From: a candidate division Zixibacteria bacterium RBG-1
GTDB lineage: Bacteria > Zixibacteria > MSB-5A5 > DSPP01 > RBG-1
Assembly: GCA_000447245.1 (NCBI GenBank)
Contig: AUYT01000001.1
Location: 804,106 to 868,105, forward strand
Length of the DNA stretch: 64,000 bases
Direction: 5' to 3'
The notes under the pieces were generated by a model. That model was not told where the DNA came from. It did no database searches and saw only the letters and a program-made list of their open reading frames with translations. Below are positions 20,007-62,631 of the stretch, one piece after another. Position 1 is the first letter of the stretch. Every line of letters begins with the position of its first letter. Both the position numbers and the translations under genes were made by a program.

Positions 20007-20615
20007 ATGGACCGCTTCATAAATCTTTACATCCTGTTTTACCTAATCGTGGGGAATATTATATTCGGAATTGTTAACCGAAAGTTTTCCTCTGACGATG
20101 CGCCTATTATTAAAAGAGACAAAAGCTACCGGATGCTGCATACTATCCGCTTCAGCTTACTTTTTATCTGGGCAGTGGGATTTTTTCTGGCGGAGTTAAA
20201 TCAGCTTAAATTACTTCCACAAGCAGAACCAACCCGAACTTATATAAGACTTTTCGGCTTGATTTTATTTACACTAGGAGGTTTGTGGATTTTATGGTCA
20301 CGCTGGACCTTGGGGAAATGGTTTTCCACCAAGTTTGCCATCAAAAAGGGACATCAGATTATAAAGACCGGTCCTTACAAGATTATGCGGCATCCTATTT
20401 ATTTGGGAGGCACTTTAGCCATCTGGGGATTTACTCTGGCTTTGGATAGTTTGATAACTTTGCTAATTTTGGCCATCCCCATACCCATTACCTTTTATCT
20501 GAATATCAAAGCCGAAGAGAGATTATTCCTAAAAGAGATGGCTGGCGAATATCAGAAATATCAGCAAGAAGTTCCTCGCTTAATTCCCTTTCTGAAAACA
20601 AAAGCCAAAACTTAA
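20007..20615 (+). CDS. ICMT/PEMT-family membrane methyltransferase
   Basis: 202 aa, multi-TM; C-terminal motif MRHPIYLGG...EERLFLKEMAGEYQKYQQEVPRLIP typical of isoprenylcysteine carboxyl methyltransferase-like proteins. Confidence 0.65.
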   Translation: MDRFINLYILFYLIVGNIIFGIVNRKFSSDDAPIIKRDKSYRMLHTIRFSLLFIWAVGFFLAELNQLKLLPQAEPTRTYIRLFGLILFTLGGLWILWSRWTLGKWFSTKFAIKKGHQIIKTGPYKIMRHPIYLGGTLAIWGFTLALDSLITLLILAIPIPITFYLNIKAEERLFLKEMAGEYQKYQQEVPRLIPFLKTKAKT

Positions 20616-20804: not shown

Positions 20805-21341
20805 TCAGCCGGCTTTAAAGGCGGGGACATAACTTTCACGGGCGAAAATATTGACCGGGGACGAACCGATTCTTTGAGCAATTTCCTGGGATATTTTGTC
20901 TAAATCCTCTTTGGCAAAGCCTTCACAGGTGAACAAAATCTCCTGATTTTTATCAATCAGAAACAAAGTCGGCACGACCGTGATTCCATAGGCATAAGAG
21001 ATTTGATAATTATTCTGGTCCAACAAGAGAGGGAAACTGATTTTGTACTCTCTGGCAAACTGCAGGGTCTCGGCCTGGTTATTCTGCGAAATTCCCCAAA
21101 GGGTGAATCCTTTTCCGGCATAATTTTTATGTAATCTTTCTAAAAAGGGAAAAGTGAACTGGCAGGTGGGGCAGTTGATTTTGAAAAAAGCGATTAAAGT
21201 TAAATCGGTGCTTAGTTTTTCCTTTCCCGACATTGTCGGATCCGCCTTTGGCGGAAAAGAGTAAGTTTTACCATCTGTTCCGCTTAATTTAAAATCCGGG
21301 GCTTTGGTTCCTGTTTCTAAAAGCGCCATTTTCACCTCCAA
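20805..21341 (-). CDS. thioredoxin-fold redoxin (TlpA/AhpC-TSA-like)
   Basis: 178 aa; CxxC motif in FFKINCPTCQF. Confidence 0.65.
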   Translation of the reverse strand: MEVKMALLETGTKAPDFKLSGTDGKTYSFPPKADPTMSGKEKLSTDLTLIAFFKINCPTCQFTFPFLERLHKNYAGKGFTLWGISQNNQAETLQFAREYKISFPLLLDQNNYQISYAYGITVVPTLFLIDKNQEILFTCEGFAKEDLDKISQEIAQRIGSSPVNIFARESYVPAFKAG

Positions 21342-23188: not shown

Positions 23189-25690
23189 ATGAGATGCTGT
23201 AATAGCTACAAATTAACCAGGTGGGTGGCTGTAAGTATACTAATCCTCACCTCCAGCTTTGTTCAAGCGAAATTAAAAAGCGACCAATCTAAATCAGTTC
23301 ATCAGTATCCACAAACTGCAGCCGACCCCCTGACTCAAACCAGGGTTCATAAAATCGGGAATATCTGGCTCTCGATTACGAACTTCGGCCAAATTGGAAG
23401 TGGAGGGAAAACCTATAAAGATGTATGCACCAACCAACCAGCCCCATCTTGTCAGTTTCCGGCTGGCTCGGGGATTGAATATCTTTACATAGGGGCTCTC
23501 TGGATAGGGGCAGTGATGAATGATACGGATACTTTGGTTGCGGTGGGGCATGATGGCTGGCAGAATGTGCAGGAATTTGGTCCTACGTCAACCGGGGCCA
23601 TAGTTTCGAGAACTATCCGACCTGATGGTTATCAACAAGATAACTGTTTTGTTCCCTATTCAGATTCGGCAAAGTCGGAACTGGATTATATTGCCGTGTA
23701 TTATGATACGGTAACAAGACAGGATATCCCCAGCATACCGGAAAGAGATAGACCACTAAATTTAGAGATTACCCAAAAAAGCTACAGCTGGAGTTATGAA
23801 TATGCCAATGATTTTGTACTGTTCGATTATTCAATAAAGAATATTGGGACCAATAAATTAACCAGTGTTTATATAGGATTTTATATTGATTTTGATATCT
23901 ATAATCAGAGTTTTGATGGAGGTGGTTATTTTGATGATATTGCCGGCTTTAAGTTTTCAGTGCCTTCACCCTATGATCCCCGTCTGGAAGATACAGTCAG
24001 CATTGCCTGGGGTGCGGATAATGATGGATTATCTGCTGCGCGAGTGGAAGGAGACGTTTTCCTAGACAATTTTAGCCCTACAGGAGTCCTGGGAACGAGA
24101 GTGCTTCGGTCACCAAATCCTGATTTAAAGCATTCTTTTAACTGGTGGGTTTCTAATGGAAATCCTCAGTTGGATTTTGGACCCTGGACCCAAGCCAATC
24201 TTGCCAGGCGCCCAAACTATTTCGTTCCTAATGGCCAATCCGGAACTCCGGAATCTGATCGGTCTAAATATTTCATCATGAGTAATAATGAATTTGATTA
24301 TGACCAATTGTTTGCTGCTTTACCAGAGATTTGGGAGCGACAGGGTTGGGTAAACCAGACCCAAATTTCACCCGACAATCTGGCAGATATTGCCGACGGT
24401 TTTGATAGCCGCTATCTGTTGTCTTTCGGTCCTTTCGACATTGATTCTGGTGAGGTTCTTCCGTTGACCATCGCTTTAGTGGCCGGAGAAGATTTTCATG
24501 TTAAGCCGACTGATTTTAATTCGTATAGTGCGACTGACAGTGCGGCGGTCTTTAATTTTTACAATAAGCTTGATTTTACCTCTTTAGCCGCCAATGCCCA
24601 TTGGGCTGCCTGTGTCTATGACAATCCGGGGTTTGATACTGACGGGGACGGTTATAGAGGGGAATTCCGAATAATTGCTGGTGATACAATCTATAAATGC
24701 GGGGACGGAGTTCCAGATTTTCAAGGTCCGCCTCCCCCACCTGCTCCCCAATTGAAATTTGAAACCTCCTACGGAACCGTAAAAATCAAATGGAATGGCA
24801 AAACGACTGAAAAGTTTTTTGACCAATTTACCAATCGAAGAGATTTTGAGGGTTACCGAATCTATGGCAGCTGGACTGGAATTTTGGGGGATTTTTTTCT
24901 TCTGGATTCATTTGACAAAATGAATTATAAGTTTTTCTACTGGGATAAAGGGAGAAAAAAATGGGTTTACAAGCTTACCGACTTAAGCCTGGACTCTCTT
25001 GTGACTTTGTTTAAGCCAGACGACCCTTGTGAGGGTGCAAGACCTTGCCCCTTGGAGAGCTTATCTTTTTGTTCTGACCCTGACACTTGTGACGACTGGG
25101 ATGTTGCCAGATGGAATTTATATCATCCTTATATCTATCAGGGAACCCAAATAGAAACTTTAAGGATTGCTCCCAATTTAATCATTACCAGGGGGGATTC
25201 GATTTATTTCGACAGGCAGGACTATAACAGAGGTCTATTACCAATCAAGACTTACAAAGACAGTATCTTGAATGGGAGCATTGGTTCAGATGATGACAGA
25301 TATTATGAGTATGAATATGTAATTGATAACTTGAATCCCAATGAGCCCCTTTATTTCGCAGTTACGACTTTTGATTTCGGAGATCCAATAACACGTTTGA
25401 CCCCTTTGGAAACCAGTGTTCTGGCTAATTCTAAATTAGTTTATCCCCGAGTTTGTCTGGCTAAACCGGGGGATGTTAATGAAGATGGGGAGGTTCTGTT
25501 ATCGGACGTGATAGCTATGATTAATATCCGTTTTACATGGTGGCCCCCTCGTCCCATTCATACCTGCAGAATGGACATGAATGGTGATGGGTGGGAACTA
25601 TTTGCAGATATAATCTATCTGGTTAATTACCTATTTAAAGGTGGCCCAAAGCCACAGGTTGTTGAAGAGTGTTGTTTGGTAGGTAATTGA
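23189..25690 (+). CDS. large secreted hypothetical protein with C-terminal dockerin-like tandem repeats
   Basis: 833 aa; signal peptide; C-terminus GDVNEDGEVLLSDVIAMIN...MDMNGDGWELFADIIYLVNYLFKGGPKP...CCLVGN resembles duplicated dockerin Ca-binding loops (DxNxDGxxxxxD). Confidence 0.55.
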   Translation: MRCCNSYKLTRWVAVSILILTSSFVQAKLKSDQSKSVHQYPQTAADPLTQTRVHKIGNIWLSITNFGQIGSGGKTYKDVCTNQPAPSCQFPAGSGIEYLYIGALWIGAVMNDTDTLVAVGHDGWQNVQEFGPTSTGAIVSRTIRPDGYQQDNCFVPYSDSAKSELDYIAVYYDTVTRQDIPSIPERDRPLNLEITQKSYSWSYEYANDFVLFDYSIKNIGTNKLTSVYIGFYIDFDIYNQSFDGGGYFDDIAGFKFSVPSPYDPRLEDTVSIAWGADNDGLSAARVEGDVFLDNFSPTGVLGTRVLRSPNPDLKHSFNWWVSNGNPQLDFGPWTQANLARRPNYFVPNGQSGTPESDRSKYFIMSNNEFDYDQLFAALPEIWERQGWVNQTQISPDNLADIADGFDSRYLLSFGPFDIDSGEVLPLTIALVAGEDFHVKPTDFNSYSATDSAAVFNFYNKLDFTSLAANAHWAACVYDNPGFDTDGDGYRGEFRIIAGDTIYKCGDGVPDFQGPPPPPAPQLKFETSYGTVKIKWNGKTTEKFFDQFTNRRDFEGYRIYGSWTGILGDFFLLDSFDKMNYKFFYWDKGRKKWVYKLTDLSLDSLVTLFKPDDPCEGARPCPLESLSFCSDPDTCDDWDVARWNLYHPYIYQGTQIETLRIAPNLIITRGDSIYFDRQDYNRGLLPIKTYKDSILNGSIGSDDDRYYEYEYVIDNLNPNEPLYFAVTTFDFGDPITRLTPLETSVLANSKLVYPRVCLAKPGDVNEDGEVLLSDVIAMINIRFTWWPPRPIHTCRMDMNGDGWELFADIIYLVNYLFKGGPKPQVVEECCLVGN

Positions 25691-38026: not shown

Positions 38027-39985
38027 TCAGGCACACCCCAGAAGAGGGGCTGTGCCGCTTTTGAAAACATAATTCACCAGATAAACAATATCTGCTAAAT
38101 TCACCGAACAATTCGCATTGGGATCTCCCAAAAACAGGGGGTTCGGTGCTGGTCCCCCTTTGAAAACAAAGTTCACCAGCCAAATAATGTCCGTCAAATT
38201 AATTCCCCCATCTGAATTGGCATCCCCGGCTAGGTAAGGAAAGGTCTTCAAACTATCCAAGGGAGACAAAATCCAATAGTTGGGGTCAAAGGTAATGGAA
38301 GTGGGATCACCGGTTACCAGGAAGAAAAAAGTCTGGTCTCTTTGGTTGTTTTGCAATGTGACGATTGTATCACCGGAGGTGGTGGAAACCTTGAATTCTA
38401 GCGGCATGGTATAAACTGAGGGGGTGGTCTGTTTCTGGCTGATGTTGAGATGAACCCTGGAGTTTCCTCCCACAGGGGTCTCAGCCCAGCTCCAGTTGTA
38501 TCTGGGAAAATTGGGGCTATAGACCCACTCATTGAAAAACCAATCCAAATCCTGTCCGGAGTAATTTTCCATTGAGGTTTGAAATTGCTGAGTATTGGCA
38601 GTGCTGTATTTATAGGTCTGTCCGTAATCCGCCATCCCGTTAAAGAACAAACTGTCGCCCAGTATGTATCTCAACATATGCAGAACCCAGGAGCCCTTGT
38701 CGTAGACCGCAGTTGAAAACCAGTAGTTGGAAGGTGGATTGTAAATCGGATAATGGACTGAGCCGTTGGGTAGCTGGTAAGAAGATTTAACGGCGTTTTC
38801 TTGCCCCGCTAACTGTGAATTTTTGGCTGATAGACCGTATTCATATTCCATCCACAAGACCTCGCAGTAGCTGGCAAACCCTTCGTTGAGCCAGATGTTG
38901 GGAAAGTCATTGCAGGTGACCATATCCCCCCACCACTGGTGGCCCAGCTCATGGGCATTCACCCATTCGTAAACAGCATTGCCGGGCATGGGAAATCCCC
39001 AGGAGGTGTTGGTCTGATGCTCCATAGCACCACCCAATTCTGCCTGCACGTTGGAGTATTTTTCACCCATAAAAGGATAAGGGACCCAGATAGAGGAGAA
39101 AAACTCAATCATCTCCGGAGTTTTTCGAAAATCCACCACTGCCGCAGCCGAATCCTCGTGATAAACCCAATAATGAACCGGCAGGGTGTCGTTGTTTACC
39201 ACCGCAAAAGAATCAATTCGGGCAAAATCACAGACCGTCAAAGAGATTAAATAAGTCACTATCGGATAATCTTCTTTCCAGTGATATGTCACTGTGGTAT
39301 CTGGATTGTTGGTAACTGAGAGAAGAGTTCCATTAGCTACCGCATAATTTCCTGCTGGAGCAGTGCAGATAATTTCTGAATAAGCTTTGTCGTTGGGAAA
39401 ATCAAAACAGGGAAACCAATAACGAGAGCCGTAAGGTTCGGTGAAGGAATAATAAATGGGAGTGCCGTAGGCATTGGCATCAAAATAAAATCCGCCACTC
39501 GGGTTTCCATGATAAAAAACTTCCACATTAAAAGAATCCCCGGGATTGTAGGGAACATCCAGGTCCACGGTCAATTTGGTGCTGGTTCTGGAAAAGGTGG
39601 TGCTGGAAAAATTGACCTTGCAGGAATCCACCGTCATACCCACAAAGTCTAAGACCAGGCTGGCCAGAAGGGAAATTTCCGACTTGGCGTGAATGGTCAC
39701 ATGCCCCCGGAATCTGTTGGTCAGGTCCGTGGGAACCAACCTGACATCTAAAATATATTTGGTAACGTCATAATCATGGGAGCTGTCGGCCGGCAGGGCT
39801 GGGGGAAAGGATTTTCCGAAGTGTAAAGATTTCCCCTCCTCCACCAGATTAGACTCCGGATCGCCTGCCGGGGAACCTGCTTGAGATTTGGGGACATAGG
39901 CAAATGCGGTAACAGTCAAGACCAGCAGGCAAATCAAAAAAATTAGACTTATAGCTTTGTTAGAGAATCTTTTTCCACCAGACAC
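38027..39985 (-). CDS. M1 family aminopeptidase (aminopeptidase N-like) with C-terminal dockerin-like module
   Basis: 652 aa; signal peptide; gluzincin motif HELGHQWWG...NEGFASY; C-terminus GDANSDGGINLTDIIWLVNFVFKGG...GDPNANCSVNLADIVYLVNYVFKSG...LLGCA. Confidence 0.8.
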   Translation of the reverse strand: MSGGKRFSNKAISLIFLICLLVLTVTAFAYVPKSQAGSPAGDPESNLVEEGKSLHFGKSFPPALPADSSHDYDVTKYILDVRLVPTDLTNRFRGHVTIHAKSEISLLASLVLDFVGMTVDSCKVNFSSTTFSRTSTKLTVDLDVPYNPGDSFNVEVFYHGNPSGGFYFDANAYGTPIYYSFTEPYGSRYWFPCFDFPNDKAYSEIICTAPAGNYAVANGTLLSVTNNPDTTVTYHWKEDYPIVTYLISLTVCDFARIDSFAVVNNDTLPVHYWVYHEDSAAAVVDFRKTPEMIEFFSSIWVPYPFMGEKYSNVQAELGGAMEHQTNTSWGFPMPGNAVYEWVNAHELGHQWWGDMVTCNDFPNIWLNEGFASYCEVLWMEYEYGLSAKNSQLAGQENAVKSSYQLPNGSVHYPIYNPPSNYWFSTAVYDKGSWVLHMLRYILGDSLFFNGMADYGQTYKYSTANTQQFQTSMENYSGQDLDWFFNEWVYSPNFPRYNWSWAETPVGGNSRVHLNISQKQTTPSVYTMPLEFKVSTTSGDTIVTLQNNQRDQTFFFLVTGDPTSITFDPNYWILSPLDSLKTFPYLAGDANSDGGINLTDIIWLVNFVFKGGPAPNPLFLGDPNANCSVNLADIVYLVNYVFKSGTAPLLGCA

Positions 39986-40327: not shown

Positions 40328-41176
40328 ATGAGAAGTTCGGTGAAGTGGCTGACGGTAATATTGGGCGTTTCTGCTTTTGGTGCGGCGACCGCCTCGGAGA
40401 AGATTTCCTGGAAAAAGATTGACGAGGCCTTAAGCTTAGCCAAAAGCCAGAATAAGAAATTATTAATCGATTTTTATTCCCCCACCTGAGGGGCCTGCAT
40501 AAAAATGGACAAAGAAACTTACTCGGATGACCGGGTGGTGGTTCTGTCCAAAGATTTCATCTTCGTCAAAGTCAACACCAAAGAAGATACCTTAACTAAA
40601 AAGCAATATCAAGTATTCGCCACTCCGACTGCGCTTATGGCCAATGCGGACGGGCAGGAGATAGACCGGGTGGTAGGTTTTCATCCCACCGAACAGTTTT
40701 TACCCATCATCAAAGATTACCAGAAAGGGAAAAATACTTTAGGTGATCTGGAGAAGAAAGCCGGCAAAAATCCCAAAGACGTAAAACTTTTGTACACTTT
40801 GGGGGACAAATATCAATGGCGAGGCGGTAATGAAAAAGCTGTGGAGATGTTTAACAAAGTGGTAGAGTTAGACCCGGAAAATAAATCCGGCAAAGCGGAC
40901 TCTTCGGCTTTTAATCTGGCTTACCTGAAATATCGCCAGAAAGATTATCAGAGTGCCATTGCTGATTTTGAAATGTTCAAGACCGAGTATACCAATCCCA
41001 ATCTGGTGGGTGATGCCCAGATTTACATCGCGGCCTCTTACGAAAAGTCAGATAACAAAGCCGAAGCTCTGAAACAGTACCAGAAATATCTGGAGATGTA
41101 TCCGGAGGGTGAAAACGCCGATTACGCCAAGGAGCAGATTGAAAAACTGACCCAGAAAGCGGAAAAGGCAGAATAA
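40328..41176 (+). CDS. exported thioredoxin-fold (DUF255/Thioredoxin_7-like) + TPR protein with in-frame TGA at the first Cys of the CxxC motif; candidate selenoprotein
   Basis: ATG 40328 preceded by AAAAGGAGG; signal peptide; ORFs 40262..40489 and 40505..41176 are in one frame, separated only by TGA 40487-40489; joined reading ...KKLLIDFYSPT[TGA]GACIKMDKETYSDDRVVVLSKDFIFVKV... aligns with the LLIDFYADWCGxCKxMDKE thioredoxin-like pattern. Confidence 0.5.
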
Positions 41177-43445: not shown

Positions 43446-44171
43446 ATGAAAATAGTAAGAATCGCTTTACCCTGTATTTTTTTGATTCTTCTCTCTTTTT
43501 TAATCCTGACTGCTCATCCGAATTTTACCGGATATTCAGGGGCACCGGGCTGTAAAGGAACCTGCGCCTCATCCTGTCACGGTTTTGCGGGGGGAACTAT
43601 CTCAGTCAGCGGTTTTCCCAGCACCTATACTCCAGGACAAATCTATACTCTAAAGGTGAGTCATTCTGCCGGAGGAAGCATTGCCAATTTTAACGCTTCA
43701 GTCCGAATTGTAACAGACAGCAGCAATGCCGGAGTTTTATCAGCAGGACAGAGCACCGTTACCTACAATACAACCGGGGAGACCAATGGAATGCATTTTT
43801 CCAATGCCGATCAGGATAGTGGCACGTTTTCCTGGACTGCGCCGGATACTTCAGTAGGTGAAGTACGTCTTTATTTAGCCGGACATCAAGGGACTACCCC
43901 GGATGATCCCAACACTGAACTGGTATTGAGCGCCACCTCGGGGGTTTGTCTGGCGAAAGCCGGAGATGTCACCGGAGATGGCACCATTCTTTTGCCCGAC
44001 ATTATAGCCATAATAAATTTTCTATTTAGAGCCGGACCAACCCCCACCCCGCTCTGCCGGGGGGACGCCAACGGCAATGGAACTATTTTACTTCCGGATG
44101 TAATTTACTTAATCAATTTCCTGTTTAGGGCCGGCCCAGCCCCGGTTAAAACAGGGGTCTGTTGCCTGTAA
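43446..44171 (+). CDS. small secreted protein with C-terminal dockerin-like tandem repeats
   Basis: 241 aa; signal peptide; C-terminus GDVTGDGTILLPDIIAIINFLFRAGPTP...GDANGNGTILLPDVIYLINFLFRAGPAP...VCCL. Confidence 0.55.
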   Translation: MKIVRIALPCIFLILLSFLILTAHPNFTGYSGAPGCKGTCASSCHGFAGGTISVSGFPSTYTPGQIYTLKVSHSAGGSIANFNASVRIVTDSSNAGVLSAGQSTVTYNTTGETNGMHFSNADQDSGTFSWTAPDTSVGEVRLYLAGHQGTTPDDPNTELVLSATSGVCLAKAGDVTGDGTILLPDIIAIINFLFRAGPTPTPLCRGDANGNGTILLPDVIYLINFLFRAGPAPVKTGVCCL

Positions 44172-53172: not shown

Positions 53173-54720
53173 ATGAGAAACAAAGTTGTGTTAGCAGTGG
53201 TATTTTTATTATGGATGGGACTTGCTTGGGCAGATACTCCCCAGCTGATTAATTTTCAGGGTCGACTGACTGATTCTTTGGGAAACCCTGTGAGTAATGG
53301 TGCCTATAGTTTACGCTTCAGAATCTACGATGATTCTTTGGCTGGTAATATTTTGTGGGAAGAGACCGACCCGGTTCAGGTAAAATCTGGACTTTTTACG
53401 GTGCTTCTGGGTTCAACTAATTCAATTCCGGATAGCGCTTTTTATTCTGCTAATCGCTGGTTAGGAATAAAAATCGGTACAAACCCTGAAATTACACCCA
53501 GACAGAGATTGGCTTCCGTGGGTTACAGCTATGTTTCTTCCCAATGGAACTCGGCTGACTCGAATCTCTATCGGATAAAGGGAAAAGTCGGCATTGGAAC
53601 TTCCACTCCCACCTTCGCAAAGCTGGAGGTCGTCGCCTCCAGTGGCATCGGCGTTTTCGCTTCGGGCAGCCCTGGCGTTTACGGCACCAGCTCATCAGGC
53701 ACTGGTGTTTTTGGCGAGGGTTCCTTGTACGGCCTTTACGGCAACAGCAACGGCACTGGAGTTTTCGGCACGGGCCCCCAGTACGGCGTTCACGGTGATG
53801 GGTACAACGGCACGGGCGTTTACGGCGAGGGCGACACGGCTGGCGTTAGCGGCCAAAGTATATCAGGCACTGGCGTTCGCGCCTTATCATATAACGGCCC
53901 CGGTGTTGTCGCTTCGGGTAGCACGTACGGCGTTTCCGGCACAAGCACCGGAGGCACTGGCGTTAGAGGCATTAGCGGCAGCGGCTATGGCGTTTATGCC
54001 TCGGGCGGCCCGAACGGCGTTGTCGCTTATGCAACTAATTCTGGCGGCTCGGCTGTTTACGGCTCGGGCGTCACGTATGGTGTTTACGGTGTGGCAAGCG
54101 CCAACAACGGCTCCGGTGTTTATGGTTCAAACGGCGGGAATCCCTCGACATATGCCGGCTACTTCGTCGGAACCGTTTACGTGGCCGGTGACTTTTATGC
54201 TGTAGGAACAACCAAAAGCGCCGCCGTGAAAGTCAACAACGGCGAATATCGGGTGCTTTATGCGCAGGAATCCCCCGAAAACTGGTTTGAGGATTTCGGC
54301 ACGGCCCAGTTGGTGAATGGCCAAGCCACTGTGAATATCGATCCCCTCTATGCCCAAACGGTAAATACGGCAGTAACCTATTACGTCTTCTTGACTCCGG
54401 AAGGGGATTGTCAGGGACTTTTCGTTACCGGCAAGACCCCGGCCTGTTTTGAGGTGCGGGAACTGCAAAACGGGAAATCCAACCTGTCGGTGAGTTATCG
54501 AATCGTGGCCAAAAGGAAGGGCTATGAAAACGTCCGCCTGCCCAAACTGCCCGGCCTAACTCCGGAAGAGGTTCAAGCCAAAGACGTCAAGCTCCGGGCC
54601 GAGATGGCCAAAGAAAACGCTGGGCACCTAGAGGAACAAGCCCGAATGGAGCAGGAACGTAAGAAAATGGAAGAAGAGCGCACCAAAATGGAGCAAGAAT
54701 GTTTGCTTCCCAAGCGGTAA
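53173..54720 (+). CDS. secreted glycine-rich repeat protein with GC-rich repetitive core and C-terminal coiled-coil
   Basis: 515 aa; signal peptide; about 20 tandem G-x-GV(Y/F)G-like repeats encoded by locally GC-rich DNA (53600-54200); C-terminal globular region and charged tail EEQARMEQERKKMEEERTKMEQE. Confidence 0.5.
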   Translation: MRNKVVLAVVFLLWMGLAWADTPQLINFQGRLTDSLGNPVSNGAYSLRFRIYDDSLAGNILWEETDPVQVKSGLFTVLLGSTNSIPDSAFYSANRWLGIKIGTNPEITPRQRLASVGYSYVSSQWNSADSNLYRIKGKVGIGTSTPTFAKLEVVASSGIGVFASGSPGVYGTSSSGTGVFGEGSLYGLYGNSNGTGVFGTGPQYGVHGDGYNGTGVYGEGDTAGVSGQSISGTGVRALSYNGPGVVASGSTYGVSGTSTGGTGVRGISGSGYGVYASGGPNGVVAYATNSGGSAVYGSGVTYGVYGVASANNGSGVYGSNGGNPSTYAGYFVGTVYVAGDFYAVGTTKSAAVKVNNGEYRVLYAQESPENWFEDFGTAQLVNGQATVNIDPLYAQTVNTAVTYYVFLTPEGDCQGLFVTGKTPACFEVRELQNGKSNLSVSYRIVAKRKGYENVRLPKLPGLTPEEVQAKDVKLRAEMAKENAGHLEEQARMEQERKKMEEERTKMEQECLLPKR

Positions 54721-55987: not shown

Positions 55988-57040
55988 ATGGTGGTCTCTC
56001 TGATGTCGGTGGTTTTATTGTTGGGTATTAGCTGGCTGGTTTCAGGTTGTGGCGGTGAAGGGCAAACCGAATCTTTGAAAGAGGCAGTTTATGGCTCCCC
56101 GGAAGCTCAAATTTCAATGGAGAAACCGACTACTTCTGAACTGTATTCGGGAGCGGCTTTGAGCATTGCGCCGGAAGTAAACCCAGTACCCAATGCCAAA
56201 GTCCATGAGGTCCGTTTGGACGTGACCCATAGCGAAATTCAGGTAACCGAAGGGGTGAAATTCGTAGCCTGGACTTTTGGTGGAACTTTACCAGGTCCGG
56301 TATTGCACGTTCGTCAAGGAGACCGAGTTAGATTTACCATGACTAATCGGTCTGACCAAACCGTATCCTTTTCACCGCCCACTCCACATTCCATCGATTT
56401 CCATGCCGCCATGGTCAATCCGGCTGACAAATATAGAGAAGTCATTCCCGGAGCCACCATCAAATTTGAATGGGTAGCCAATTATCCCGGTGTATTTATG
56501 TATCACTGCGGCTCTCCCGCAATTTTACAACATATGATTTATGGCATGATTGGGATGACCATTGTGGAGCCGAAAAATGGTTACCCCACCAAGGTAGACC
56601 GGGAATTTGCTTTAGTACAAAGCGAGTTATACTTAACTAAAATGAAAAGCGGTATGTATCTGGTGGATATGGAAGCCGCCAAACAAAAGAAAGCCACCTA
56701 TGTAACTTTTAATGGAATTCCCAAACAGTATGTCGACAAGCCCTTACAAGCTAAACCCGGTGAAAGAGTCAGAATATATATACTAAATGCGGGACCAAAC
56801 GGAACTTCCAGTTTCCATGTGGTGGGTACTTTATTCGATAAAGCCTGGTTTGATGGAAATCCACAAAATGAGCAAAGAGGGTTACAGACTGTAATTTTAG
56901 GTTCCAGCAACGGCGCTATTGTTGAATTTGTTATCCCGGAAGCGGGAACTTATACTTTTGTGGACCATGAATTTGCGGATGTAGAGTTAGGAGCAGTCGG
57001 ACAAATAGTGGCTAAAAGTGAGGCGATAGCCAGTAAGTAA
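55988..57040 (+). CDS. nirK: copper-containing nitrite reductase (NO-forming)
   Basis: 350 aa; lipoprotein-type leader (LVSGC); type-1/type-2 Cu ligand contexts HSIDFHAA and YHCGSPAILQHMIYGM (Cys-x8-His-x4-Met); C-terminal HVVG and FVDHEF regions parallel known NirK. Confidence 0.85.
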   Translation: MVVSLMSVVLLLGISWLVSGCGGEGQTESLKEAVYGSPEAQISMEKPTTSELYSGAALSIAPEVNPVPNAKVHEVRLDVTHSEIQVTEGVKFVAWTFGGTLPGPVLHVRQGDRVRFTMTNRSDQTVSFSPPTPHSIDFHAAMVNPADKYREVIPGATIKFEWVANYPGVFMYHCGSPAILQHMIYGMIGMTIVEPKNGYPTKVDREFALVQSELYLTKMKSGMYLVDMEAAKQKKATYVTFNGIPKQYVDKPLQAKPGERVRIYILNAGPNGTSSFHVVGTLFDKAWFDGNPQNEQRGLQTVILGSSNGAIVEFVIPEAGTYTFVDHEFADVELGAVGQIVAKSEAIASK

Positions 57041-57054
57041 AACAGGTTAAACCG

Positions 57055-57612
57055 ATGCGCAAATTTAGTTCCATATTTATATTAATGATCTTACCATGTC
57101 TGGTGTGGGGAAATACCTCCCTAAACGCTCCTCCTAAACAGGTTAGGAGTTTTTCCCCAGGAACCAAGGGCACAGTACTGATATTTGTTTCCAGTCTGTG
57201 CCCTTGTACTGATGCCCACAGGATTATGGTGGAAAATTTAATGACTAGAATGCCAGCCAGTGGATTCAAATTTTATGCGGTGTTCTCCAATAAAGGGGAA
57301 ACTACCGAACTGATAGAGTATTTCTATCGGACCATTGGCTGGCAGATGCCTTATATTTTGGATAGTAGCGGAACTTTGCAAAAAAAATATAAAGCCACCC
57401 ATACCCCTCAAGCCTTTGTGATAAGTCCTCAAAATAAAGTGCTTTATAGAGGACCAATCGACGACAGTAACTTAAATCAGGGACGAGTAGATAATCCTTA
57501 TTTAAAAAATGCTTTAGAGGATCTTTTGGCAGGAAGAGCTGTTAAAGCTTCTGAGGTGGCTGGGACCGGCTGCTGGATTGTTAGAAGTATTTCTTCAAAA
57601 GAACTGAAATAG
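57055..57612 (+). CDS. thioredoxin-fold protein (SCO/TlpA-like), exported
   Basis: 185 aa; signal peptide; Cys motif VSSLCPCTDAH in a thioredoxin-like context. Confidence 0.45.
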   Translation: MRKFSSIFILMILPCLVWGNTSLNAPPKQVRSFSPGTKGTVLIFVSSLCPCTDAHRIMVENLMTRMPASGFKFYAVFSNKGETTELIEYFYRTIGWQMPYILDSSGTLQKKYKATHTPQAFVISPQNKVLYRGPIDDSNLNQGRVDNPYLKNALEDLLAGRAVKASEVAGTGCWIVRSISSKELK

Positions 57613-57733
57613 AACCCGAGATGAATATAAAGCAGATTAAAACCTTAAAGATTGTGAAAAAAATCACAAAAAAAGGTAAAAAAACCTAGGTCAATTTAGA
57701 AAGTAAAAACTGTTGATAAAGAGAGGCTTGAAA

Positions 57734-58246
57734 ATGAAAAACTCAATGAAAACAATAGCTGGTTTAGCCATTGTTCTGGGATTCTTGATATTATCCGGAT
57801 GTAGTAAAAATACAAAAGTAATCTCCGGTCCCTCAAATCCTTTTGTTCTTTCAGTTCAACCAACTAATGGAGCCGTTAATGTCCCAATTTCATCTTCAGT
57901 GCAGATAATTTTCGCCTCTCCTATGGATACTCTTTCAGTAGCTCAAAACTTCTGCTTGATAGGAGGAGAGATGATGTATCAAGTGATGGATTCTTTGGAG
58001 CATGCTATGATGGATTATTCAGAGATGATGGAGTGGATGCATTCAGAGTCTTTTACTGGACAGTTTCAATGGAATTCAAAAAGAGATTCTTGTCTATTTT
58101 TACCAGATTCCAGCCTGATTCATCATACCGAATACATGATTTATATGGGAAGGAATATGGAGAGTAGGCATCGTGATATGATGATGGAACACCGAGAGAT
58201 GATGGGAGAAGATTTTATAACTCATTTTACAACCGAGGATAACTAA
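57734..58246 (+). CDS. Met/His-rich periplasmic lipoprotein (putative Cu(I)-binding)
   Basis: ORF 57713..58246; likely ATG 57734 (AGAGAGG RBS); lipobox LSGC; Met-rich stretches MMYQVMDSLEHAMMDYSEMMEWMH and HRDMMMEHREMMGED. Confidence 0.5.
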   Translation: MKNSMKTIAGLAIVLGFLILSGCSKNTKVISGPSNPFVLSVQPTNGAVNVPISSSVQIIFASPMDTLSVAQNFCLIGGEMMYQVMDSLEHAMMDYSEMMEWMHSESFTGQFQWNSKRDSCLFLPDSSLIHHTEYMIYMGRNMESRHRDMMMEHREMMGEDFITHFTTEDN

Positions 58247-58404
58247 CTCTTAGAAGAAGGAGGAAAAATGAAAAGAGTGTTAAAACTTTTATAGATTTAG
58301 AATTAACTGTCAAGAGTAATATTTTTTTCTTGACAAATTAATTCTGCTGGATGATATTTAGAGAAGTTAAAAAAAATTGAAACAAGGACGGGGAAGGAGG
58401 ACGA

Positions 58405-59319
58405 ATGAAAAAGAAAAATAAAGTTTGGGTAGGTCTGGGGGTACTCTATCTGGTTGTTTTTCTATTGTGTTGGGGAACGATAACTTCCAGAAGTCAAGAA
58501 ACTTCTGCTGGAGCTACCTATGTCGGCTCCGAGTTGTGCTTAACCTGCCACCAGGATCTTTTGGCAACCTACGAACACACCATCCATTACAAAATCGCCC
58601 AGGATCCCAGAAATGAACTGGAGCAAAAAGGGTGTGAATCCTGCCATGGTCCAGGAAGTATGCACACTGAAGACCCTAGTAATGTGAAAATTCCAGTTTC
58701 TTTTGCTAAAAAGACAAAAACTCCGGTAAAAGATCAGAATGAAGCCTGCTTACAATGTCATGAAAAAACCCACTTGAACTGGTCGGGTAGCATCCATGAC
58801 TCCAGAGAGTTAGCTTGTGCCACTTGCCATCATATTAAAGAAAATCTTACAGATAGATTTCTGTTGGCTAAGGCTAACCAGTCGGATTTATGTGGCTCCT
58901 GCCATAGGGCTCAAAAAGCCAAAACCATGAAGGCCTATCACATGACGGTAAGGGATGGAAAATTAGAATGCACTTCTTGTCATAATCCTCATGGAACTAA
59001 TACAGATAAGCTGTTAGTGGAGAACTCAGTCAATGAAACCTGCTATAAATGTCACGCTGAAAAAAGAGGCCCTTTTTTGTGGCCGCATCCTCCGGTGACG
59101 GAGAATTGTCTGAATTGTCATGACCCCCACGGCTCTAACCATAACAAGATGTTGCTTACCAAAGTGCGCCGGATCTGTCAGAGGTGCCATGTTGAAACCA
59201 GGCATCCCACCACCCCTCAGACTGCCAATAACCTTTATCTCATCAACCATGCCTGTGCTAACTGCCATTCTCAAATTCATGGTTCTAACCACCCCTCTGG
59301 GGTAAGATTTCTCAGATAG
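58405..59319 (+). CDS. decaheme c-type cytochrome (MtrA/DmsE/PioA-like)
   Basis: 304 aa; signal peptide; ten CxxCH motifs (CLTCH, CESCH, CLQCH, CATCH, CGSCH, CTSCH, CYKCH, CLNCH, CQRCH, CANCH); RBS GGAAGGAGG. Confidence 0.85.
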   Translation: MKKKNKVWVGLGVLYLVVFLLCWGTITSRSQETSAGATYVGSELCLTCHQDLLATYEHTIHYKIAQDPRNELEQKGCESCHGPGSMHTEDPSNVKIPVSFAKKTKTPVKDQNEACLQCHEKTHLNWSGSIHDSRELACATCHHIKENLTDRFLLAKANQSDLCGSCHRAQKAKTMKAYHMTVRDGKLECTSCHNPHGTNTDKLLVENSVNETCYKCHAEKRGPFLWPHPPVTENCLNCHDPHGSNHNKMLLTKVRRICQRCHVETRHPTTPQTANNLYLINHACANCHSQIHGSNHPSGVRFLR

Positions 59320-59327
59320 GAGGAAAA

Positions 59328-61538
59328 ATGAAAAAAAAGAGCTTATTTTTTTTAATCCTAAGTTTAACCCTTTTTTTGCCGGTATATAGCCAGACTACCT
59401 CCAGCGGAGATGTCGATATAGGCTTCTATCAGATTTCGGGATATACCTTATCCAACAAGTACTTAGAATACAGAGACTATAGAGAAGGAATTGCTTTAAA
59501 TGGATTATCTTATTTTCTGGGAAGCAAAATCGGGTTTCTGGATTTAAAAGCTACGGGAATTGCTAGAAATGACCAAACTTCTGCTTTGCGTTTAGGAAAA
59601 TACGGAAGATATTATCTCAATTTGAGCTGGGACCAGACTCCCCATATTTTTAGCAACCACTCTAAACTTTTCTTCAGCGAAACTCAAAAGGGAGTCTATA
59701 CACTTGCCGATTCAATCCAAGCCCGCCTGCAGGGAGCTTCCGATGCTCAAATACGGAGTTTGATGGCCAGCTACCTTTCACAAGCCCAGAGGTTCCCCCT
59801 CTCCTATCGCAGAGATAAGGCCATCGGTGAGGTAAAGATTTCTCCCACTCGGGATATAGCGCTAAAGGTTTCTTATACTAACGAGAAAAAGAAAGGATAC
59901 AAAGCCACCAGCGGGACCCCCGGAGGTTTTAACATGATTGACCTGCCGGAGCGGATTGATTTTTTGACTCATCAGGTTGATGCGCAAGCGCAGTATTCTC
60001 AAAAAAATTGGTCGATCATTGGAGATGTGGGAGTCTCGGTTTTCGACAATAAGCTGGAAGCTTTGAACTGGGATAATCCCTTCCGGCTCACCGACACAAC
60101 CGGCGGGGCCACCAGGACTTCTAAGATAAGAATGGGTGTAGCCCCGGATAACTGGTCCGGGAACACCAGTATTACCGGTTTTGCCAAGTTACCCTTTTAT
60201 AACATTCAATCCCGGGCTACCATAGGTTATGGAATAACCAGACAAGACGAAAACTTCTTGCCCCATACCAGTAACTCGGCTTTAGTGGATACCCTTGACC
60301 CCTTGATTCTGCCCAAGTCCAGTCTGGAAGGAGAAATCCGGACCGTAACCGGAAGTTATTTTGTCACCGCCCGACCGATTAAAGAACTCTTTTTGGAAGC
60401 CAATTTTAAATACGATGAATTCGACAATCAGACCGAAGAGATTATTTTCCCCAGCCGGGTGTCACAGGGCGATCAATCGCTCGACACCTTAGGCCGAGCC
60501 AGTTTACCATATGAATATATCAAGAGATACTACGGCCTCAAAGCCAATTTCAAACCGATCTCTTATGTCTCTGTAGGTCTGGGGTACAATTATGAACGCT
60601 TTTCGCGTGATTTCAGGAATGTGAGGAAGTCCGGCGAGAACAGCTATCGCTTTTCATTGGATTTGTTCCCGCTCTCCTGGGTAACGGTTCGCAACAGTTA
60701 TACCCGTTCAGAGCGAAAGGCCGAAGCTTACAACGCGGATGCAGTGGAAGAGACTTTTCCGGAAGGGGAGGCGGTGGTTAATCCACTCTTAGAAGAACTG
60801 AGGAGATTTGACCAGGCTGACCGAAATCGGGATAGATTTGTCTCTCAGGCATCGCTCGAGGTCTTTGATAAAGTGGATTTGATGTTGGGGGCTCATATTC
60901 AGTTGGATGATTATCCAGAGAGTCATTATGGGGTAAAAGAGGGTCGGTCCACGGCCCTTTCTGCGGGAGTTAATTACTATCCGATTCCCCGATTCAGTTT
61001 TTATGGAGATTACACCCGAGAATATTTGTTCACAGATATGCAGTCCCGCTATAGAAATGTGGTGGGTGGTGTCGGGACAGACGACACTTTGGATGATTGG
61101 GGTACCAAGGTCAGAGATTTGACAGATCTCTTTTCACTCGGATTTCTAGTGGACGTTATTCCCCAAAAATTGAGTTGGCAAGTCAACTACACCTATTCTT
61201 ACTCCTGGGGCAAAAACGACAACTATTTCACTCCTGGTGGAGCGCGATCCGGTGGTGGAGTGGATCCGGCCTACGATGATTCCTTACTCTGGCCTATGAC
61301 CAAAAATGAACTGCAGACAGCTAATTCCTTCATTAGGTATAAGATTTCAGAAAAGGTTTCGGTCTGGGGTGAGTACCGCTTCGAGAAATATTTTATCAAG
61401 GATTTCACCATAGATGACGTTGATCCCCAGGAGTTAGGAACCGGTGGTACTCAGGGAACTCGGTCGATATTTTTAGCTGCCACTCAGCCGGATTATGAAG
61501 GGCATTTATTTGGCTTGAAGTTGGCTTATTCATTTTGA
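59328..61538 (+). CDS. large outer-membrane beta-barrel protein (MtrB/PioB-like by context)
   Basis: 736 aa; signal peptide; long run of amphipathic beta-strands; C-terminal LKLAYSF with terminal Phe; follows the decaheme gene by 8 nt. Confidence 0.5.
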   Translation: MKKKSLFFLILSLTLFLPVYSQTTSSGDVDIGFYQISGYTLSNKYLEYRDYREGIALNGLSYFLGSKIGFLDLKATGIARNDQTSALRLGKYGRYYLNLSWDQTPHIFSNHSKLFFSETQKGVYTLADSIQARLQGASDAQIRSLMASYLSQAQRFPLSYRRDKAIGEVKISPTRDIALKVSYTNEKKKGYKATSGTPGGFNMIDLPERIDFLTHQVDAQAQYSQKNWSIIGDVGVSVFDNKLEALNWDNPFRLTDTTGGATRTSKIRMGVAPDNWSGNTSITGFAKLPFYNIQSRATIGYGITRQDENFLPHTSNSALVDTLDPLILPKSSLEGEIRTVTGSYFVTARPIKELFLEANFKYDEFDNQTEEIIFPSRVSQGDQSLDTLGRASLPYEYIKRYYGLKANFKPISYVSVGLGYNYERFSRDFRNVRKSGENSYRFSLDLFPLSWVTVRNSYTRSERKAEAYNADAVEETFPEGEAVVNPLLEELRRFDQADRNRDRFVSQASLEVFDKVDLMLGAHIQLDDYPESHYGVKEGRSTALSAGVNYYPIPRFSFYGDYTREYLFTDMQSRYRNVVGGVGTDDTLDDWGTKVRDLTDLFSLGFLVDVIPQKLSWQVNYTYSYSWGKNDNYFTPGGARSGGGVDPAYDDSLLWPMTKNELQTANSFIRYKISEKVSVWGEYRFEKYFIKDFTIDDVDPQELGTGGTQGTRSIFLAATQPDYEGHLFGLKLAYSF

Positions 61539-61766
61539 GAAATGATCACAAGAGCTTGACTACCAACTGGATAGGAGGGGTATTTAACATATATTAAGAG
61601 TGTTTGTGTCGACATAAGTCATTTAGACATACGACGTTGTAATTTACCGACGTTGGTCTAGAAGTGCAAATGAGGGAAATATTGTGAATTTTTTCACTTG
61701 CTAAGCAGATCTTACGTATGTATTATAAAGAATAGATAGAAACAGGTCTAAAAAGGAGGATAAAGT

Positions 61767-62174
61767 ATGAAGCTCAAAGAACTGGTCTTACTGATTTTGG
61801 TACTCGCAATTTCGGTCTTCGTTACTCGGTTTTTGGTTACAGTGGAACCGGCCCATGGAACAACACCGACCGGAAAAGAACTGTATCAAAAACATTGCGC
61901 TTCTTGTCATGGCGCGGATGCTAAGGGCGTGGAGAAGATGGCTAAAATGTTAAAAGTCACCATCAGGGATTTGACCAAGCTGGCTAACATTCCAGATTCC
62001 ACCAAAACCTGGCCGAAAATTATCGCAGACGGAAAAGCCAAGATGCCGGCTTTTAATAAAAAACTGAAAGAGGCAGAAGTGAGTTCCGTTATAGCCTACA
62101 TTCATACCTTGGCGCCGGCTTCAGGCAAGAGCGAGACTCCAGCAGCCAAGGATACCACTAAGGTTACAAAATAG
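61767..62174 (+). CDS. monoheme class I cytochrome c
   Basis: 135 aa; N-terminal membrane anchor or signal; single CASCHG motif; Lys/Thr-rich C-terminal tail. Confidence 0.7.
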   Translation: MKLKELVLLILVLAISVFVTRFLVTVEPAHGTTPTGKELYQKHCASCHGADAKGVEKMAKMLKVTIRDLTKLANIPDSTKTWPKIIADGKAKMPAFNKKLKEAEVSSVIAYIHTLAPASGKSETPAAKDTTKVTK

Positions 62175-62205
62175 AAACCAGAACCCAAATTTTTTAGGAG
62201 CAAAA

Positions 62206-62631
62206 ATGAAAAGCAAAAATTGGACAATATATCTGAGCCTCGTAATAATTACATCCTTAGCAGTTTTTTTGATTTTTAGAACTGGTCAGAGCCAAGCCCA
62301 AAAAGTGACTGCCAAAGATTTATACAAGAAAAGCTGTGCCGCCTGTCATGGAGAAGATGGCAAGGGTGTGGAAAAGATGGCCAAGATGCTGAAAGCCACC
62401 ATTCGAGACGTTACCAAACTAACTATGACAGCAGAGCTGTCCAAAGAATGGGATAAGGTCACTAAAGACGGAAAAGGAAAGATGCCGGCTTACAAAGCCA
62501 AACTCAAACCAGCTGAAATCGATTCGGTCCTGGCTTATATGCAAACCATGACTGTTAAACCGACTAAGTCAGAAACGGCTGAAGCTAAGGATACCACTAA
62601 GGTTTCTAAAGATACGACCAAAGTAAAATAG
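62206..62631 (+). CDS. monoheme class I cytochrome c (paralogue)
   Basis: 141 aa; CAACHG; core closely parallels the preceding gene (GKGVEKMAKMLKATIRD, DGKGKMPAYKAKLK). Confidence 0.7.
   Translation: MKSKNWTIYLSLVIITSLAVFLIFRTGQSQAQKVTAKDLYKKSCAACHGEDGKGVEKMAKMLKATIRDVTKLTMTAELSKEWDKVTKDGKGKMPAYKAKLKPAEIDSVLAYMQTMTVKPTKSETAEAKDTTKVSKDTTKVK

Follow-up and report, generated by a model that had tools for sequence, protein, structure and literature searches.

Three otherwise unrelated exported proteins, encoded in the 64-kb stretch of DNA of the candidate division Zixibacteria bacterium RBG-1 that was analysed here (the whole stretch is referred to as the window), end in the same manner: two copies of a short loop-helix unit are followed by one or two cysteines close to the last residue. 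The locus raises the question of what this common tail is and what it may do for such different proteins. Each tail was found to be a genuine type-I-like dockerin composed of two F-hand loop-helix repeats that form a three-helix fold, and this assignment is secure. The genes and their tail modules, identified from translations of open reading frames (ORFs), Pfam and NCBIfam matches and a pattern scan, are as follows (window coordinates):

23189..25690, + strand: gene of an 833-aa Sec-exported protein, carries tail 1 (ORF translation)
25451..25687, + strand: dockerin module 1, 4-Cys type (C..C..CC), terminus ECCLVGN (pattern scan; PF00404 23.4 bits)
25472-25534 and 25574-25636, + strand: repeats 1 and 2 of module 1 (pattern scan)
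38027..39985, - strand: gene of a 652-aa Sec-exported M1-family metallopeptidase, carries tail 2 (ORF translation and Pfam)
38030..38248, - strand: dockerin module 2, 2-Cys type, with a Cys in loop 2 (DPNANC) and the terminal Cys of LLGCA (PF00404 28.1 bits)
38224-38162 and 38125-38063, - strand: repeats 1 and 2 of module 2 (pattern scan)
43446..44171, + strand: gene of a 241-aa Sec-exported protein with an N-terminal choice-of-anchor V domain, carries tail 3 (ORF translation and NCBIfam)
43938..44168, + strand: dockerin module 3, 4-Cys type, terminus GVCCL (pattern scan; PF00404 24.2 bits)
43965-44027 and 44064-44126, + strand: repeats 1 and 2 of module 3 (pattern scan)

The presence of three ORFs ending in tandem dockerin-like repeats and Cys-containing termini had been claimed in a preliminary description of the window, and both the translations and the pattern scan agreed with it. 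At its N-terminus each of the proteins shows a typical Sec signal peptide, as read from the sequence (a K/R n-region, a hydrophobic core and an A-x-A-like site), and the cargo parts are mutually unrelated. The 833-aa protein corresponds to RBG1_1C00001G0733 of Zixibacteria RBG-1 (100 % identity), which is encoded on a 2.12-Mb contig; its N-terminal 754 aa gave no match in Pfam, NCBIfam or PDB sequences. The 652-aa protein matches the Pfam families Peptidase_M1 (E 1.3e-29) and Peptidase_M1_N (E 1.8e-17), and the 241-aa protein matches NF041895 choice_anch_V of NCBIfam with 56.1 bits against a cutoff of 42.

Every tail comprises two copies of the unit G-D-x-N/T-x-D/N-G-x(4)-x-D-[IV]-[IV]-x-[LIM]-[IV]-N-[FYI]-[LVR]-F-[KRT]-x-G-P/T-x-P. 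The regularity of the repeats noticed earlier holds for the unit as such and fails in two details, since repeat 1 of the 833-aa protein is degenerate at its helix end (MINIRFTWWPPRP) and the usual Gly of the second loop is replaced by Cys in the M1 tail (DPNANC). A six-frame regular-expression scan detected no copy of the unit elsewhere in the window. The DNA sequences of the three tails are only ~55-60 % identical (84 of 246 columns are invariant), which indicates that they are old copies, long separate and preserved by selection at the protein level; a recent duplication or cassette exchange among the tails was ruled out by the same low identity.

The isolated tails 1, 2 and 3 scored as listed above against Pfam Dockerin_1 (PF00404; gathering cutoff 22.9 bits), with E-values from 2e-6 to 7e-5. 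The top phmmer matches among PDB sequences were all type I dockerins (E 8e-5 and weaker), and PF00404 was matched by 103 of 108 family members at E<=0.01, the best E-value being 1e-18. The AlphaFold2 model of module 3, which rests on the alignment of these 108 sequences, was predicted with a mean predicted local distance difference test (pLDDT) score of 95 and contains helices at 19-30, 39-42 and 52-63. When the model was compared with the PDB by Foldseek, the 32 best matches were all dockerin chains (probability 0.84-1.0, TM-score 0.6-0.83), followed by noise. The dockerin-like character of the unit, proposed at first from its resemblance to Ca-binding loops, was thus confirmed by the Pfam hidden Markov model (HMM), by phmmer and by the predicted fold, and no known secretion C-terminal domain (CTD) matched the tails.

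The Ca-ligand positions 1, 3, 5 and 12 (D1, N/T3, D/N5 and D12) are kept in all six repeats of the window, and in the 108-sequence alignment the ligands D10, N12, D14, D21, D43, N45, D47 and D54 are near-invariant across the family; binding of Ca2+ by the tails is predicted from this conservation. The helix face Y-L-I-N-Y-L-F-K-G-G-P-x-P is likewise near-invariant in both repeats, and the resulting internal two-fold symmetry is maintained across very different cargo.

Two other kinds of C-terminal signal were considered and rejected. No match to TIGR04183, the model of the CTD of type IX secretion systems (T9SS), was obtained in the three tailed proteins; since, in addition, the predicted fold is helical, T9SS CTD identity was ruled out. 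A PEP-CTERM, IPTL-CTERM or LPXTG signal was ruled out because the sequences end 1-6 residues past the Cys, with no hydrophobic or transmembrane stretch, no basic tail and no NCBIfam match.

A search with the sequence of a single tail, based on a word index, gave only 4 matches, so that a profile search was needed. The profile of the tails retrieved more than 2,313 proteins from the 8,000 candidate proteins scored, a total which is a lower bound. The tail is present on another protein of the same genome, the hypothetical protein P0063 (RBG1_1C00001G0284), which ends in GVCCL like the 241-aa protein, and on thousands of proteins elsewhere, as would be expected if the preliminary description was right in treating it as a shared module. 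The few named family members are called 'dockerin type I repeat-containing protein' and come from Zixibacteria. The cargo of the family is diverse and includes peptidases of the M24, M28 and S8 families, SBBP, NHL and FG-GAP propellers and Ig-like domains.

In a scan of one genome per species, at least 567 confirmed genome loci were found to encode the module. The best 80 of these loci, from which the taxonomy was taken, belong mostly to Zixibacteria and to metagenome-assembled genomes (MAGs) labelled Ignavibacteria, with a few from Acidobacteria, FCB and DPANN-archaeal MAGs. Genomes usually hold several copies of the module, and one 2.7-Mb Zixibacteria chromosome carries at least 10 loci; the Zixibacteria chromosomes OY970208.1 and CP070839.1 are both rich in such tails. 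The position of the module is strictly C-terminal: a stop codon follows within 5 residues of its end in 98 of 107 independent genome ORFs. One of the archaeal cases is the Woesearchaeota MAG contig CAYHUM010000012.1 (29 % GC; locus L030), where the YLVNYIFKGGPAP...C dockerin tail forms the end of a protein longer than 1066 aa; loci L026, L035 and L025 are to be added here. Unless the contig is a case of mis-binning, the occurrence in DPANN-archaeal MAGs implies that the module extends beyond diderm bacteria.

The cysteines of the module follow a clear arithmetic. In 99 of the 108 sequences a Cys lies near the terminus, 1-8 residues past the second GGPxP. The Cys patterns in alignment A2 were (4,40,75,76) in 36 sequences, (46,76) in 31, (8,46,76), with an extra Cys at position 8, in 12, and (48,76) in 5; the M1 tail shows the last of these patterns in common with other family members. 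In the independent set of genome loci a single internal Cys (at 46, 48 or 8) goes together with a single terminal Cys (42+10+7 cases) and two internal Cys accompany two terminal ones, so the terminal Cys is not systematically alone; 10 of the 107 members of this genome-locus set are Cys-free. The balanced Cys numbers, the alternative positions of the partner and the existence of Cys-free members argue for stabilising disulfides and not for a lipidation or sortase site. From these sequence patterns one or two disulfides are predicted to link the near-terminal Cys with the internal ones. The preliminary description had left two roles for the terminal Cys: the disulfide agrees with the co-occurrence of cysteines, and lipidation disagrees with the Cys-free members and the matching internal Cys. 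Cellulosomal dockerins need a non-covalent 'clasp' between their N- and C-termini for stability and cohesin binding (PMC3821032), and by analogy the Cys pairs may represent a covalent version of this clasp.

In all three protein families the RBG-1 dockerin sits where relatives have a T9SS anchor/sorting domain, i.e. in a choice-of-anchor slot. In the 833-aa family the dockerin tail was found only in the closest relatives (72-100 % identity, P0121-P0126) and in one paralogue, P0143. Over 100 further homologues from Zixibacteria, with 40-61 % identity, carry an alternative tail of ~90 aa, '...NLPxxCTIRIYTLDGDLVR...WDLISRNTQAVVSGIYLY.VES..G.QVGKFVIIK'. It matches TIGR04183 above the cutoff (24.0 bits) for P0135 and below the threshold for the others, and the models of PorU and PorZ are matched as well, at their CTD ends. 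AlphaFold2 predicted a beta-sandwich for the alternative tail, with PorZ, PorU, the translocon-bound NucA CTD, the RgpB CTD and the mirolase CTD as the best structural matches by Foldseek. In other genomes an HMM derived from the alternative tails picks up canonical 'PNPFNP...KMVLMK' T9SS CTD ORFs, and the CTD HMMs constructed in this analysis found nothing in the window; matches of the profile of the alternative tails to PDB sequences were weak only (PorU CTD, E 0.16).

Two further features of the 833-aa family were observed. Its N-terminal part (window 23189-25450) has more than 1,692 homologues of ~850 aa; the named ones are all from Zixibacteria, and a T9SS-type CTD is present in most. The homologues P0127-P0132 (59-61 % identity) have a T9SS-like CTD with a Cys-flanked acidic insertion, NNCAADDNPDDGHDTWC, which is absent from other CTDs.

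Of 150 representatives of the choice-of-anchor V family, 117 are recognised by the model of this domain and 72 have a TIGR04183 match; other homologues end in IPTL-CTERM-like signals or in other dockerin variants. The variety of anchors is illustrated by P0246, P0262 and P0385, which end with 'PTLxxWG' followed by a hydrophobic helix and a basic tail and have an IPTL-CTERM-type look. The M1 homologues at 65-100 % identity have the dockerin tail, ending in ...LGCA or LGCP, and those at 33-40 % identity have T9SS CTDs in most cases and other dockerin-like repeats in some. A second M1 peptidase of the RBG-1 lineage (766 aa; L166 15628-16017) terminates directly where its catalytic and C-terminal M1 domains end and has neither dockerin nor CTD, which shows that the dockerin tail is specific to one paralogue.

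Both types of tail occur together on a single 1.44-Mb contig (P0138 and P0143), and T9SS-CTD ORFs adjoin dockerin ORFs on the Zixibacteria chromosome OY970208.1 (L038) and in a Zixibacteria MAG. The 80 kb of RBG-1 DNA analysed contain four dockerin tails and no T9SS CTDs, a sample too small to claim loss of T9SS. The earlier suggestion of an anchoring or sorting module is supported indirectly by the T9SS sorting domain found in the same slot of all three sets of homologues.

Taken together, the data are best explained, in our opinion probably correctly, by a Ca2+-dependent, disulfide-stapled dockerin through which proteins exported by Sec bind to an envelope receptor that they have in common. 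Proteins exported by Sec would carry at their extreme C-terminus a dockerin module pinned by one or two disulfides, and through it many different proteins would dock, non-covalently and in a Ca2+-dependent manner, onto one shared receptor of the cell envelope, presumably a module of the cohesin type carried by an anchored scaffold. The dockerin tail would thereby fill the surface-retention slot that is held by the T9SS CTD in the homologous proteins. The symmetric, near-invariant helix face on unrelated cargo fits a shared protein partner, and the slot common to the tail and to T9SS CTDs fits a surface-retention role. Cloacimonadota offer a precedent, with peptidases that bear a dockerin at the C-terminus and with a cohesin scaffoldin which itself ends in a T9SS CTD (PMC8542988).

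Several points weigh against docking onto a shared receptor. The whole proteins scored 17.7, 18.7 and 20.7 bits against PF00404, below its cutoff; this is probably why the genes are labelled hypothetical, and it makes the module easy to miss in annotation. No match to the validated CipA cohesin 2 was found by phmmer in the 893 kb searched, the search being insensitive and covering <5 % of the RBG-1 genome, and the genes annotated in the window and on its flanks include neither a cohesin gene nor one for a T9SS component. Within the reach of annotation and of this low-sensitivity search, the earlier statement that no cohesin is visible in the window is correct. Many non-cellulosomal dockerins reportedly have no identified cohesin either (Peer et al. 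2009, cited in PMC8542988). Moreover, a dockerin, unlike the T9SS CTD that it replaces, does not account for the passage of the cargo across the outer membrane.

That RBG-1 has an outer membrane follows from an MtrAB-type porin-cytochrome iron-cycling cluster near the window's 3' end, described previously for this bacterium (PMC3903129). The region 55988-62631 encodes a multicopper oxidase, a thioredoxin-like protein, a Big_5 protein, a multihaem cytochrome c, an MtrB/PioB outer-membrane porin (PF11854, E 8e-93) and two monohaem cytochromes. The three tail genes themselves are scattered amid housekeeping genes, among others the suf operon and genes for an Rrf2 regulator, NAD synthetase, RNA cyclase and M16 peptidases. 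A gene of the ICMT/PEMT family (isoprenylcysteine carboxyl methyltransferase-like) is located at 20007-20615, 2.5 kb upstream of the 833-aa gene; its vicinity to genes for proteins with C-terminal Cys is probably a coincidence. A Thioredoxin_2 and TPR protein is encoded at 40505-41176, divergently from the M1 peptidase gene, and more thioredoxin-fold genes are present at 20805-21341 and 57055-57612; these genes might be related to extracytoplasmic thiol-disulfide chemistry. For the 515-aa ORF at 53173 the record look-up gave no entry.

The alternative that survives best, although we regard it as unlikely, is a dockerin that acts without a cohesin. Stabilised by Ca2+ and stapled by disulfides, such a module could bind an envelope glycan, the S-layer, a mineral or a polymer substrate, or it could merely stabilise or solubilise exported proteins. 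Its presence across very different envelopes (the protein of more than 1066 aa of the Woesearchaeota MAG, the Acidobacteria MAGs) would be in keeping with this possibility, as would the lack of a cohesin in any DNA searched and the partnerless non-cellulosomal dockerins, which are said to be common. However, the extreme conservation of the helix faces in both repeats across unrelated cargo is what a shared protein receptor predicts, and the swap with the surface-anchoring T9SS CTD favours a role in localisation over mere stabilisation. The existence of a cohesin scaffoldin in a related FCB phylum (PMC8542988) also speaks for a protein partner.

A bolder proposal, quite unlikely in our estimate, is that Zixibacteria, Ignavibacteria-like bacteria and some DPANN archaea display proteins at the surface by a route not described so far, for which the Cys-stapled 'YLINYLFKGGPxP-C' dockerin serves as the tag on the cargo. 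Such a route would employ a receptor other than a classical cohesin, and in the RBG-1 clade the tag would have taken the place of the T9SS sorting domain on a whole set of exported proteins.

It is improbable that the tail is a sorting signal in the strict sense, i.e. a cargo tag that a translocon or a sortase-like enzyme would recognise, perhaps by means of the terminal Cys, and afterwards remove or link covalently. The strictly C-terminal tail occupies the exact slot of the T9SS CTD in homologues of all three proteins, one of which has a choice-of-anchor domain, and the 80 kb of RBG-1 DNA with four dockerin tails and no T9SS CTD could be read in the same way, but both the fold and the HMM point to a dockerin and not to a beta-sandwich CTD. 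A transmembrane helix or basic tail of the PEP-CTERM/IPTL-CTERM kind is missing, the module occurs in MAGs of DPANN archaea, which have no outer membrane, and the Cys-free members and the balanced Cys numbers are those predicted by disulfides. Since cargo with T9SS CTDs and cargo with dockerins share single Zixibacteria genomes, neither module simply replaces the other.

Finally, attachment of a lipid or prenyl group (CaaX- or Rab-like) to the near-terminal Cys, which would tether the proteins to a membrane, is scarcely credible and was ruled out as the main explanation on Cys bookkeeping and variable frames (C, VC, CA, VCCL, CCLVGN): the frequency of this Cys in the family and the nearby ICMT-family gene are in its favour, but the endings GGPPPC, GGPAPVC, VCCL, CCLVGN and LLGCA have no common CaaX frame, the number of terminal Cys tracks that of internal Cys, Cys-free members exist, the tailed proteins are exported by Sec, and ICMT-family genes are common in bacteria, this one not being in an operon with the tail genes.

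Docking of disulfide-stapled dockerins onto a shared envelope receptor, as favoured here, bears on the surface biology of Zixibacteria, abundant uncultured sediment bacteria whose cell surface is little known. A large share of their exported proteins bear one of two interchangeable C-terminal modules, the T9SS sorting domain or the putatively disulfide-stapled dockerin, which gives a concrete handle for predicting the surface proteome of this group. For the fields of type IX secretion and of cellulosomes the question arises which receptor holds the dockerins and how proteins with a dockerin tag and no CTD get through the outer membrane.

Some of this was known before. The module belongs to Pfam Dockerin_1, and NCBI already names its Zixibacteria relatives dockerin repeat proteins. 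Dockerins outside cellulosomes have reportedly been known since Peer et al. (2009). In the literature searched, no publication was found that deals with Zixibacteria together with dockerins or with T9SS, and no published description was found either of disulfide-stapled dockerins or of a dockerin/T9SS CTD swap in homologous proteins.

Four known systems may be compared with the RBG-1 tails. The T9SS type A CTD (TIGR04183, Por_Secre_tail) resembles them in being strictly C-terminal on Sec-exported proteins of FCB-group bacteria and in occupying the same slot. It differs in structure, being a beta-sandwich unrelated to the helical F-hand pair of the dockerin tail, and in action, since the CTD drives translocation across the outer membrane and is cleaved by PorU, and no sign of either was seen for the dockerin tail.

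The clasp of the Ruminococcus flavefaciens ScaA dockerin (PMC3821032) is the closest counterpart of the Cys pairs. There, both the fold and the cohesin-binding site owe their stability to contacts between the region preceding the first Ca loop and that following the last helix; in the RBG-1 family a Cys at -5 (4-Cys tails) or -1 (8-type) from the conserved Gly is matched in number to the C-terminal Cys. Published clasps are formed by stacking or electrostatic contacts, with no mention of a disulfide in PMC3821032, whereas the clasp of the RBG-1 family would be covalent. Furthermore, the internal partner Cys of most family members is located in loop 2 and not at the N-terminus.

With the clostridial type I dockerins (PF00404; 1OHZ_B, 2CCL_B, 2MTE, 4DH2) the tails share tandem F-hand repeats in which a D-x-N-x-D-G...D12 loop is followed by a helix, a repeat spacing of ~33 residues, the three-helix fold, the C-terminal position on secreted enzymes and the internal two-fold symmetry. 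The clostridial modules have an L-x-R/K-Y-L-L-type helix with Ser-Thr and Lys-Arg recognition pairs, whereas Y-L-I-N-Y-L-F-K-G-G-P-x-P is found in the tails, and the near-invariant terminal Cys with covarying internal Cys is a property of the tail family. The host is a diderm candidate phylum, and the cargo consists of a peptidase, a choice-of-anchor V protein and an uncharacterised protein instead of glycoside hydrolases. A predominance of polysaccharide-degrading enzymes among the dockerin-bearing proteins, by which a cellulosome is recognised, was seen neither in the window nor in the cargo of the whole family.

The fourth system is that of Ca. Stygibacter of the Cloacimonadota (PMC8542988). 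This organism likewise belongs to a candidate phylum of the FCB group, its proteins with signal peptides, peptidases included, bear C-terminal dockerins, and T9SS CTDs are used in the same lineage. The published account describes neither a dockerin/CTD swap in homologues nor a Cys staple; the cellulosome-like system that it proposes includes an identified 3,755-aa scaffoldin with tandem cohesins and a T9SS CTD of its own.

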